Of a DNA stretch of 64,000 nucleotides, positions 56,566-60,081 are shown in pieces. The notes beneath the pieces were generated by a model, which saw only the letters and a program-made list of their open reading frames with translations, searched no databases and was not told the origin of the DNA. Origin of the DNA: a virus (lineage: Duplodnaviria; Heunggongvirae; Uroviricota; Caudoviricetes); IMG/VR virus record IMGVR_UViG_2923350032_000001, positions 750-64,749 of that record. One strand, 5' to 3'. A program made the position numbers and the translations under genes. Positions within the stretch are counted from its first letter, which is position 1; the number at the start of each line of letters is the position of its first letter.

Positions 56566-57195
56566 ATGAACATACCACCCAGGGCGACTAGGACTGTTTT
56601 TTGTGTCGGTAGCGGACCGTCACTCACTCGTGAGGACTGTGCTGCTATAGAAAAAACTGGCTGTTCAATCATCGCGGTTAACAATTCCTGGCAGATGTTC
56701 GATGACATTTATGCCTTATACGCCGGTGATTTGTCATGGTGGAAGCAATACGGATCCACCATACCGGGAGGGAGATTCCGCAAAGTGACAGCCAACCTGG
56801 CGGCGGCGAAATCATTTTCGTTGGAGTACAGGCGATATTGTGGACCGGCGGAAGGGGTAAATAGCGGCGCGCAGGCTATCAGTCTGGCTGCTGAATCAGG
56901 GGCTGAAGTAGTGGTATTAGTCGGCTATGACTGTTCTCTGCAAAACGGCCTTCATTGGCATGGCGCGCACCCTCAAGCACTACGGAATCCAACGCAGGTG
57001 TCTATTTCAAAATGGCAACAGCAGTTCCTGGATACCCGCAAAAAACACGCAGATTTACATATTTTGAATGCAAGTAGGAGCAGTGCAATTCAATGTTTCC
57101 CAAGAATAAATTTAGAGGCAGTGATCGCGTTATTATCGTCGGCAGTGGCCCAAGCGCCGCAAACTTTGTTGCGCCGCGCGGAGTGCCGATTATAG
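56566..57195 (+). CDS. hypothetical Rossmann-like protein, paralog A of a tandem pair
   Basis: MNIPPRATRTVFCVGSGPSL...IIAVNNSW...; paralog B follows. Confidence 0.45.
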   Translation: MNIPPRATRTVFCVGSGPSLTREDCAAIEKTGCSIIAVNNSWQMFDDIYALYAGDLSWWKQYGSTIPGGRFRKVTANLAAAKSFSLEYRRYCGPAEGVNSGAQAISLAAESGAEVVVLVGYDCSLQNGLHWHGAHPQALRNPTQVSISKWQQQFLDTRKKHADLHILNASRSSAIQCFPRINLEAVIALLSSAVAQAPQTLLRRAECRL

Positions 57196-57250
57196 CGGTA
57201 AATGGGGCCATCGACTGGCTTAACCGCGCTTCTTATTTTTTCACCCTTGA

Positions 57251-59014
57251 CGTATAGGAAATTGAAAAACCAGTCGATACCATTGTCCACGCCTTATGCC
57301 ACGTGAGCCTTTCTGCTTTTCCCACCACTCCGGTGGTTTCCCTCTCTGTATGGTCGATTTTTATACCGTAACAGGCTGTTTTTTATACTTTCACCGATTC
57401 CCGGGCACACTTAGCCTGTGTCAGGCCGGCATATACCTCAGTAGACTGATATCCCGCGCGTTTTTCTTCAGCCCTGATACATTCAGCCCCGCAATGGCCC
57501 GGCGGTATACCATCCGGCAGCCACACAGCACGCATTCGAACGGGTCACGACTCAGGAACTGTTTCACCATTTGTGCATAGCACACTTTCGCCACTGGTTC
57601 CGGTTTATCCATCCCCAGTGCACGGTACACCTGCGGCAGCTTCTCTCCACACACACGGTTGGCAAGGAACCCGAAGTACCTCACCATCTTAAAAAACTTC
57701 TCCGGGATGTGCTGTTTCAGCCTCGCGACCAGCTCACGCTGTGTCAGCGTTTCCGTCGCCGTTTCTCCCGTTTTGTGGTCCAGGTAACGGAAGCTCAGGC
57801 TTGCCCCTCCGTTGTAATGAGCCAGTCGGGAAGCCGCTATTGGTGGCTTCTTCAGATAACGACCCAGGTAGCGTGCCGTATTCCGCCCTCCGGCTGTCTT
57901 CTTCGACATGTACACATGCCAGTATTTTCCGCCGGATTTCAGCACCAGGCTTCTCCACTGTGATTCCGTCGTGATATGTGACAACGACTCCGGCATTGCT
58001 ATCCCCTCTGACCACGCTTTCAGAAGCAGCTGCCGCATATTCCACATCCACCGTGAACGCATCGCGTCTTTCAGGAAGCTCAGCTTTTTCCACTGACCAT
58101 GCTTATTCAGACCTCCACAGGTTACAGACACATGTACATGCGGATGCCAGTTGAGACGACGGCCATACGTGTGGATGGCGCAGAAGATACCGGGTTCCAG
58201 CCCCCGTTTTCGGGCGGCATACAGCAGATTCTCCACCGCCAGACGGCACACGTCATTCAGCAGCCAGCGGTTGCTTTCGAACACCGGCCACAGCGTGTCC
58301 GGCAGGGTGAAGACCAGATGTACCCAGTCGCAGTCAGGAAGACGATTCAGCTGTGTTGCTGTCCACAGGTCTGTGGCCTTCTTTCCGCAGGACGGGCAGG
58401 CACGGCTGCCGCATGAGTTGGTCAGGTACTTTACGTGCTGACAGTCCGGGTTATCACACCCGAACTCTTTTACACCCAGTATCCGTGTGCCGCAGGCCAG
58501 CATTTTGGTGACGGCTTCAACCTCGATATCGCGCAGACCGCCCGCATCCAGGAAGGACGTCCAGCACTGGTTGGCTGTGAACAGACGTTTCAGAGGGCGG
58601 GGAGTAAAACCGGACAACATGAGGATGGATTAAACCCCGGTATCCTGTAGCAGGGTAAGGGCTGCTGTATCGCCACGGCGCTTCAGGATGGAGGTCGTCA
58701 CCATCGCAGGTGGTGGGTCCATGGGTTTGAGCATTTTCATCCAGTCCCATTCTCGTTGTGAGAGCTTCTCAGCACCAACAGAGAGCAGAACTGTATCGAT
58801 ACTTTTGCGGGTCAACATAAGGGGATGAGTCCTTAATAAAACAGGTCCTCAGAGCATACATATTCTGCGGGGCGTGCGGCAACAACAGGACGAACCGGGG
58901 CGGTTTTCAATTTGCAGCCGCCAGGCTGCCGTGGTTCATCCATCCCCAGACAATATGCGGCGCGTTGGTCGTGGCCGCCGTCGCCGTGGTGTTTGTTATT
59001 GCATGGCACTACCC
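57251..59014 (-). mobile_element. IS91-family (rolling-circle, HUH) insertion sequence, approximate ends
   Basis: 399-aa HUH transposase plus upstream small ORF; boundaries inferred from the interrupted host gene. Confidence 0.6.
57421..58620 (-). CDS. IS91-family transposase
   Basis: N-terminal zinc-binding Cys cluster and HUH motif (NWHPHVHVSV). Confidence 0.85.
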   Translation of the reverse strand: MLSGFTPRPLKRLFTANQCWTSFLDAGGLRDIEVEAVTKMLACGTRILGVKEFGCDNPDCQHVKYLTNSCGSRACPSCGKKATDLWTATQLNRLPDCDWVHLVFTLPDTLWPVFESNRWLLNDVCRLAVENLLYAARKRGLEPGIFCAIHTYGRRLNWHPHVHVSVTCGGLNKHGQWKKLSFLKDAMRSRWMWNMRQLLLKAWSEGIAMPESLSHITTESQWRSLVLKSGGKYWHVYMSKKTAGGRNTARYLGRYLKKPPIAASRLAHYNGGASLSFRYLDHKTGETATETLTQRELVARLKQHIPEKFFKMVRYFGFLANRVCGEKLPQVYRALGMDKPEPVAKVCYAQMVKQFLSRDPFECVLCGCRMVYRRAIAGLNVSGLKKNARDISLLRYMPA

Positions 59015-59388
59015 GATGTTAAAGAACGTGAAGTCAGAGATGGCGTTCTGTGCTTCCGTCGTGTGGCTGAACGCGGCATGGAGCCAAAAAATACGAATTC
59101 TCCCGAGTGGTGGGCGTGGCGCTGGTCCGCACATTTCGGCCTTTGCGAAGATGAGAATGAAATTGCCAGCGGCAATAGTGCATATGGTGCTCTGAACCTG
59201 GCTTTCCATATCGGATTCAAACATGTAGCTCTGGTGGGCGTTGACGCTACGCAAGAACTACGCGTTCACTCCGGCGGCACGCCAAAAAATCTAAGTCACC
59301 TGCCTTTGTTATTCCAGTCTGCGCGTGAACAGATTGACGTTGTTTCATGCGGGAAAATGGGAGGTATTCCGCAGATGACTCTTAAAGA

Positions 59389-60081
59389 ATGGCTGAAAAA
59401 TACATGATGGCACCCACAATTTATCACCGTATCGACGGTACCAAATACAGGAATGTCTGGGTTGTTGGTGATCTGCATGGTTGCTACACCAGACTGATGT
59501 CCGAACTCCATCGTGTGGATTTTGACCCGGCGCAGGATTTACTGATATCGGTCGGCGACCTTATCGATCGCGGTACTGAAAATGTCGAATGTCTGGAACT
59601 ATTGCAGATGCCCTGGTTCAGGGCAGTGATGGGGAACCATGAGCGGCTGATGATTGATGCGTTAAGTCCAGATGGCAACGTGAATAACTGGCTAATGAAT
59701 GGCGGACAATGGTTCTTCATGCTGGACACTGATCAGGAAATATTAGCCTGGGCGCTGGTGGAGCTGGTAAAGCGTCTGCCCTATATCATTGAGTTGAACA
59801 CCGGGCAAGAAACTATCGTTATAGCCCATGCCGACTATCCGGATAATGAATACCAATTCGGTAAGGAGGTACCGCTTTTCAACGTTGTCTGGGCGCGCGA
59901 GCGTATCAGTGATTCGATGGATGATATTGGTGGCGAAATTTCGGGCGCAGATCGTTTTATCTTTGGTCACACTCCGGTGAAAAGCCCGAAGACATTCTGG
60001 AATCAGCAGTATATCGACACTGGTGCCGTATTTTGCGGAAACCTGACATTGATGAAAGTGAAAGGTGATGGTGCAGCATGA
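59389..60081 (+). CDS. ppp: Ser/Thr protein phosphatase (lambda-phosphatase-like metallophosphoesterase)
   Basis: GDLHG, GDLIDRG, GNHE motifs. Confidence 0.85.

Follow-up and report, generated by a model that had tools for sequence, protein, structure and literature searches.

An IS1294-type insertion sequence interrupts pmgP in a P1-like plasmid

Two adjacent plus-strand genes in the 64-kb stretch of DNA analysed here (the window) carry the same GSGPS...IIAVN signature in the list of open reading frames (ORFs), and the second of them stops early, after ...FFTLDV, at the TAG codon at 57255–57257, as a sequence-only reading of the window had pointed out. This arrangement raises the questions of what interrupts the second gene and exactly where, whether its two halves form one protein when rejoined, whether the two genes are true paralogs, and what the interruption means for the replicon that carries it.

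Comparison of window positions 55500–60800 with phages P1, P7 and 17 other P1-like phage records gave 98–99.7% identity, and all of these records aligned in two pieces that left ~1.7 kb of the query unaligned. Identity to P1 (NC_005856) is 99.3% on both flanks of the insert, which is the sole gap. The gene order pmgM-pmgN-pmgO-pmgP-ppp-pmgQ is that of P1, where these genes are annotated as lying downstream of a C1-repressor operator, and the two signature-bearing genes are pmgO and pmgP, to which the P1 annotation assigns a ‘putative morphogenetic function’ (Lobocka 2004). PmgO is 100% identical to its P1 counterpart; the start first proposed for its gene, 56566, is an internal ATG, and the gene begins 33 nt upstream. 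The start of pmgP overlaps the 3′ end of pmgO by 103 bp, in P1 likewise (Table 1).

Table 1. Features of the window discussed in the text, in window coordinates
Feature	Position	Strand	Description	Basis
IS4-family transposase	27917-29035			
pmgM	55791-56369			P1 annotation transferred by alignment
pmgN	56436-56591			P1 annotation transferred by alignment
pmgO	56533-57195	+	220 aa, intact; first of two paralogs; MptE-like/DUF115 fold	
pmgP 5′ fragment	57093-57257	+	same as P1 up to 57250	ORF list
CTTG target tetranucleotide	57246-57249	+	abuts oriIS end of the element	junction sequence
Complete IS1294-type (IS91 family) IS	57250-58937	-	1,688 bp; oriIS 57250, terIS 58937; no target-site duplication	
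tnpA	57421-58620	-	399-aa HUH (Y2) rolling-circle transposase, N-terminal zinc-binding domain	
62-aa ORF	58630-58818	-	upstream of tnpA within the IS	ORF list
pmgP 3′ fragment	58938-59407	+	residues 53-208 and stop	alignment to P1, ORF list
ppp	59389-60081	+	lambda-type Ser/Thr phosphatase; intact, downstream, same operon	Pfam Metallophos 9e-16, P1 annotation
pmgQ	60078-60779	+	putative GT-A/GT8-like glycosyltransferase	PHROG 1962 ‘glycosyltransferase’ 2.5e-128

The alignment to P1 NC_005856 fixes both ends of the insert, with the left piece running to window position 57250 and the right piece starting at 58935. The uninterrupted P1 sequence at this point reads ...CACCCTTGA|TCCATCC..., whereas the window reads ...CACCCTTGA-CGTATAGG... 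at the left junction and ...GCCGTGGTTCA-TCCATCC... at the right. A single A is shared between the two sides, so that the 1,688-bp insert can be placed at 57250–58937 or equally at 57251–58938, and we chose the former because of the published rules for the target and ends of this element family; apart from this one ambiguous base, the P1 sequence at the junctions shows neither duplication nor loss. The insertion falls after the first base of pmgP codon 53. When 57251–58938 is cut out, joining 57250 to 58939, the two halves give one continuous homologous protein of 208 aa that is identical to P1 PmgP. The right boundary originally placed at 59014, with the gene resuming at about 59015, therefore moves upstream to a resumption at 58938/58939, as removal of 57251–59014 would overshoot by 76 bp, lose ~25 codons and shift the frame. 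The open frame of the 3′ fragment reaches upstream into the insert, to a GTG at 58874, and the choice of 59015 probably came from treating this stretch as uncertain territory.

Elements related to IS91 and IS1294 insert so that their oriIS end, which lies downstream of tnpA, directly adjoins a CTTG or GTTC tetranucleotide in the target; the terIS of IS1294, IS1294b and IS801 is cleaved at GTTC, and transposition in this family generates no target duplication (PMC13181058, PMC6052338). The same arrangement is seen here. A CTTG directly precedes the oriIS end, and the terIS end reads ...GCCGTGGTTC at 58928–58937, of which GTTC occupies 58934–58937, before P1 sequence resumes; CTTG or GTTC would be expected at a given junction by chance in ~1/128 of cases. 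The geometry of the insertion is that expected of IS91-family rolling-circle transposition.

The protein encoded between the pmgP halves bears out the earlier assignment to the HUH transposases of the IS91 family, with matches to Pfam PF04986 (Y2_Tnp, 3e-57) and PF14319 (Zn_Tnp_IS91, 1.9e-21) and to NCBIfam NF033538 (transpos_IS91, 2.4e-92, covering 349/356 profile positions), and the exact protein is on record as ‘IS91 family transposase’. The 62-aa gene is called at the same position in all ten other copies of the element that were inspected. All 1,688 bp align end to end, with one mismatch (99.94%), to the copy carried by a genomic island of Salmonella Typhimurium (AB571791.1), and the copies in the plasmid records listed are ~99.6–99.9% identical to this one. 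Matches to a query that consists largely of the insertion sequence occur in 3,599 plasmid records and in 1,959 of 5,426 complete E. coli genomes. Length, ends and target, rather than an ISfinder entry, are our grounds for calling the element IS1294-type, and it may be IS1294b or another isoform. A short GCAGCC/GGCTGC palindrome lies near terIS; single-strand folds of both ends were no more stable than shuffled controls and a repeat finder reported no inverted repeats at the ends, and the subterminal hairpins expected of the family are thus not independently supported by folding energies.

The element is common, and its position in pmgP is unique among the records searched. The pmgP::IS junction has no counterpart in the phage, plasmid or E. 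coli collections, the insertion sequence is absent from P1 and 18 other P1-like phage records, and pmgP is uninterrupted in the 80 best P1-like viral contigs (80/80), from a survey that gave only near-identical P1-like sequences; reaching more distant relatives took a second scan, seeded with distant homologs. Exact-protein look-ups of the 54-aa N-terminal stub and of the 177-aa GTG-started C-terminal ORF returned no match, and the same look-up for the transposase led to 10 places, none of them in pmgP. Three apparent parallels dissolved on inspection. The IS91-family element of CP122754.1 sits after ppp, replacing pmgQ; a recorded 150-aa ATG-started C-terminal fragment is, at the loci with upstream sequence, directly preceded by pmgO with no insertion sequence and reflects alternative start calls there; and a truncated member of the PmgP cluster, P0106, is a shorter gene call with no adjoining mobile element.

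Mapping of the whole window onto P1 suggests that the surrounding replicon, a P1-like plasmid, has lost much of its phage complement. P1 87970–94800 followed by 1–2616 (pdcB to ref) is present, after which a block containing a TnAs3-like Tn3-family transposase, a resolvase and IS26 (window ~15644–20458) takes over, and P1 sequence picks up again beyond it at P1 45983 (pmgC). The intervening ~43 kb, P1 2617–45982, was not found within the 64-kb window, on which the estimate of the loss is based; it holds res/mod, darB, portal, pro, the lysis genes and the dar operon as well as cin and the tail fibre, baseplate, tape measure and tail tube genes. Both ends of the window lie within one minus-strand hsdR gene, which has two apparent frameshifts, with ~750 bp unaccounted for; the split hsdR fits a circle of ~65 kb, too small to hold the missing P1 genes as well, from which we infer circular closure. 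An IS4-family transposase gene lies elsewhere in the window, and no resistance genes were seen in the part examined. The replicon is probably no longer able to form virions, and the insertion in pmgP appears to be one among several mobile-element events in its history. Such a combination of mobile-element load and phage-gene loss is described as the route from phage-plasmid to plasmid (PMC10879196, PMC9600943).

The consequence for pmgP itself would be inactivation. The insertion yields a 54-aa stub, in which 52 residues of PmgP are followed by a regenerated Asp and a Val encoded by the insertion sequence, together with a promoterless C-terminal fragment; the GSGPS loop and the first strands are all that the stub keeps of the fold, and the 3′ fragment is without that loop. 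When the pmg and upf genes of P1 were knocked out singly, essential genes were limited to pmgA, B, C, G and R (PMC9024508), and a genome-wide CRISPRi table scores pmgO, pmgP, ppp and pmgQ as non-essential (NE) in both CRISPRi and knockouts (PMC10695390), so that a phage still able to function should also withstand the insertion. Here it would be tolerated because P1 can form plaques without pmgP and the replicon has probably passed beyond making virions, and the dispensability of these genes combined with the ~43-kb loss of P1 virion and lysis genes makes neutral decay the most likely course. Taken together, the locus is very probably explained by a complete IS1294-type insertion that inactivated pmgP in a P1-like plasmid and was tolerated, an ordinary event in which a common insertion sequence enters a gene that a decaying P1-like plasmid can do without.

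We weighed three other accounts of the insertion. It might be adaptive, selected for altered expression of ppp and pmgQ or for removal of a function that is costly in the plasmid state, as the element lies within a C1-controlled operon upstream of both genes, and the IS91-related ISCR elements can carry outward promoters (PMC6218425). However, no promoter-like site was found facing outward from the terIS end toward the pmgP 3′ fragment and ppp, the operon is dispensable, and the insertion is unique among the searched records with no sign of spread, which makes selection very unlikely. An assembler could also have misplaced a repeated insertion sequence into pmgP; the element is highly repeated in Enterobacteriaceae, as the plasmid records with related sequence illustrate, the junction is absent from the other records in three public collections, and the hsdR frameshifts in the same window could hint at sequence errors. 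Against this, the two junctions are exact to the base and follow the family rules at oriIS and terIS with the P1 bases unchanged, precision that would be unexpected of a chimeric join, and we consider an artefact highly improbable. One-ended transposition or IS-mediated recombination, bringing in or removing flanking DNA, is equally hard to credit, since even though IS1294 and IS1294b miss terIS in 1–14% of events and so mobilise adjacent DNA (PMC13181058), and the replicon has further IS-linked rearrangements, the insert is exactly one element long when aligned with another copy and P1 sequence is contiguous across its two sides, with no non-IS DNA in 57250–58937 and no P1 bases missing, and the event is therefore a simple insertion rather than a one-ended transposition with cargo.

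Simple insertion into pmgP leaves the question of what the two genes have in common. Pairwise BLASTP between PmgO and PmgP recovers only the N-terminal motif (14/36 identities, E 0.003), each protein cross-matches the other's PHROG family, and comparison of family profiles, from alignments of 60 PmgP and 39 PmgO homologs, extends the match to 165 columns (hhalign probability 98%, E 2.7e-13), with an extra segment of ~35 residues in PmgP. The two are distant, ancient paralogs whose likeness exceeds chance, and with this profile-level paralogy and the clean rejoining of the pmgP halves, the view that an IS91-family element splits the second of two tandem paralogs is upheld. Both proteins match Pfam PF01973 (MptE-like, formerly DUF115) at 23.4 bits for PmgO and 21.1 bits for PmgP, below the gathering score of 34.6, and sub-threshold matches at E <= 0.01 recur in 53 of 60 PmgP and 37 of 39 PmgO family members. 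Fold comparison finds an MptE/Maf/GT42-type fold in both, followed further down by SteA, thiamine pyrophosphokinases and eukaryotic sialyltransferases; searches of the PmgP and PmgO profiles against PDB sequences gave nothing significant, so that the fold comparison alone supplied matches. At fold level, then, PmgO and PmgP belong to the MptE-like/DUF115 superfamily, which is Rossmann-type and related to Maf and GT42. Mentions of ‘DUF115’ in two defence-system papers proved to be mismatches with DUF1156.

The GSGPS motif, the Asn of IAVN, NS(G/A) and G(Y/V)D of these proteins align to GNGPS, N, TSG and GID of Campylobacter CstII at a non-significant E of 0.3–1; in CstII these are CMP-sugar-binding motifs. 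Conserved His residues occur in the PmgO and PmgP families alike. The database label ‘alpha-2,3-sialyltransferase’ reflects only such remote similarity. The sequence-only reading had called the function of the family unknown, and this now needs dividing, in that the genes are the annotated pmgO and pmgP of P1 and can be assigned to a family by fold, and their biochemical role remains putative.

The genomic context of more distant relatives offers some indication of that role. Among 14 loci with distant PmgP homologs (50–63% identity), the PmgP homolog has a PmgQ homolog within 8 kb at 12 and a PmgO homolog at 11, and a Ppp homolog at none; the loci without a PmgQ or PmgO homolog are mostly short contigs. 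The organisms represented are Pseudomonas, Serratia, Pseudescherichia, Buttiauxella, Erwinia, Zhongshania, Microbulbifer, a Methylophilaceae bacterium and Brevundimonas. In prophages of Pseudomonas and Zhongshania the module directly follows the major capsid gene and precedes head-completion genes, and it adjoins capsid/portal genes in Microbulbifer, portal/Mu-F in Brevundimonas and terminase in Methylophilaceae contigs. In several Enterobacterales chromosomes it accompanies lysozyme, holin and Big_1/invasin-like adhesin genes rather than virion genes. The conserved PmgO-PmgP-PmgQ module occurs in prophages of Gamma-, Beta- and Alphaproteobacteria, repeatedly inside head-morphogenesis clusters.

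PmgQ weakly matches the GT8-type Skp1 alpha-galactosyltransferase 6mw5 over its DxD region (E 0.086), and this match, the fold of PmgO and PmgP and the co-occurrence of the three genes beside head genes together suggest a protein-glycosylation module. With low-to-moderate confidence, we propose that PmgO, PmgP and the GT8-like PmgQ may act as a three-enzyme module that glycosylates protein, possibly virion head proteins. The fuller version, in which two minimal Maf/GT42-like enzymes and a GT8-like glycosyltransferase modify virion proteins or, for the chromosomal copies, Ig-like surface proteins, is a possibility that we hold tentatively and as less likely than not. CMP-Kdo, which is reported as the donor of some Maf enzymes (bioRxiv 10.1101/2020.06.03.131540), might be the donor in E. 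coli K-12. Against glycosylation of head proteins, the P1 operon is C1-repressor-controlled and lies beside tail genes, not head genes, and the P1 proteome paper makes no mention of virion glycosylation (PMC9024508). The two proteins might instead be small-molecule pyrophosphokinases of the MptE or thiamine-pyrophosphokinase type and not glycosyltransferases at all, a reading that we consider unlikely. If the glycosylation proposal were true, P1 would have a glycosylated virion and the allele described here would be a natural knockout.

The insertion itself is of little consequence. Its use is for annotation, where both ORF fragments should become a single pmgP pseudogene and the insertion sequence should be bounded at 57250–58937. 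Any wider potential lies in the conserved pmgO/pmgP/pmgQ module, an uncharacterised set with a sugar-transferase-like fold in a much-used genetics phage, which is a lead worth keeping.

Comparison with known systems places each part of the locus. The Maf flagellin nonulosonic-acid glycosyltransferases exceed 600 aa, whereas PmgO and PmgP are minimal single-domain proteins of ~200 aa; Maf and the GT42 enzymes CstI and CstII are transferases, to which PmgO and PmgP are likened by fold, with donor, acceptor and even reaction type putative, and the putative action of PmgO, PmgP and PmgQ on a protein substrate is likened to the glycosylation of flagellin by Maf enzymes. P1 itself has an uninterrupted pmgP beside pmgO, whereas the gene is interrupted here and the host replicon is without ~43 kb of P1. 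The element shares with IS1294 and IS1294b a length of ~1.7 kb, a single Y2-HUH transposase with a zinc-binding N-terminus, the lack of terminal inverted repeats and of target duplication, CTTG/GTTC at oriIS and a terIS ending in GTTC; those elements are abundant on enterobacterial plasmids, and this copy shows no structural difference from them, its insertion site in pmgP alone having no counterpart in the records searched. The replicon, finally, resembles degraded or cargo-bearing P1-like phage-plasmids in combining a P1 backbone with Tn3-family, IS26, IS4-family and IS91-family elements and the loss of phage genes, and would be a further case in which mobile elements wear a phage-plasmid down to a plain plasmid.

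Homologs of PmgO, PmgP and PmgQ were found together in prophages of distant proteobacteria (L026, L027 and L108–L119, the 14 loci with distant PmgP homologs), and the set conserved at these loci does not include Ppp. In the Pseudomonas and Zhongshania prophages (2 of the 14 loci) the major capsid gene immediately precedes the three homologs, and in Zhongshania a SAM methyltransferase lies between those of PmgP and PmgQ. On the chromosomes of Pseudescherichia, Serratia and Buttiauxella, the PmgO/P/Q genes instead adjoin inverse-autotransporter or Big_1 adhesin genes, with phage lysozyme, holin and fimbrial usher genes also beside them, and these loci may be what is left of a domesticated prophage with a link to surface proteins. 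The product label given to PmgO and PmgP in databases, ‘norphogenetic protein’, goes back to a misspelling of ‘morphogenetic’ in the P1 record that hundreds of entries for both families in RefSeq, UniRef and GenBank now repeat.

In the window, the end of pmgO and the start of pmgP share 103 bp (57093–57195), read in a different frame for each gene, as in the P1 annotation; the overlap in distant homologs is just 7–43 bp. The PmgO structure model has low confidence over the final ~20 residues, and on this basis the long PmgO tail may be read-on rather than a functional part.

Features of the window and of the chromosomal loci beside adhesin genes
Feature	Coordinates	Strand	Remark
hsdR (type I restriction gene)	1–1553 and 63190–64000	minus	both window ends lie inside this one gene
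P1 1–2616	12995–15611		one flank of TnAs3/IS26 block
TnAs3-like Tn3-family transposase, resolvase and IS26	15644–20458		in place of ~43 kb of P1
P1 45983–46634	20493–21142		other flank of TnAs3/IS26 block
IS4-family transposase gene	27917–29035	minus	between repL region and bplB
pmgO	56533–57195	plus	
pmgP	57093–59407	plus	interrupted by IS1294-type element
62-aa ORF in IS1294-type element	58630–58818	minus	10 bp upstream of tnpA
pmgQ	60078–60779	plus	
Adhesin-side PmgO/P/Q loci	L108 3977–7477 and 9263–13344; L026 1–1500; L119		

The segment of P1 replaced by the TnAs3/IS26 block comprises res/mod, darB, portal, lysis, tail fibre, baseplate, tape measure and tail tube genes. The ref–TnAs3 junction also occurs in CP100027.1 and NZ_CP142045.1, two related P1-like plasmids, but the IS26–pmgC junction does not. 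Sequence matching P1 51586–53420 (rlfA, rlfB and pmgF; coordinates of NC_005856) was not found in the window. The parB/parA region (window 36206–38580) gave no P1 match at the megablast level, while the gene 23 and incA/repA regions that flank it match P1 at 97%, which suggests, from sequence comparison, a partition type different from that of P1.

The window starts with the N-terminal two thirds of hsdR, which contain two apparent frameshifts, and ends with its C-terminal 270 aa; ~750 bp are missing. This split arrangement suggests that the replicon is a circle of ~65 kb, and we suggest that hsdR is either pseudogenised or represented by error-containing sequence.

Within the IS1294-type element that interrupts pmgP, the small ORF upstream of tnpA has a counterpart in each of the 10 other copies inspected, where a 62-aa gene was called at the corresponding position. 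An upstream ORF, orf121, has been described in the literature as unique to IS91 itself.
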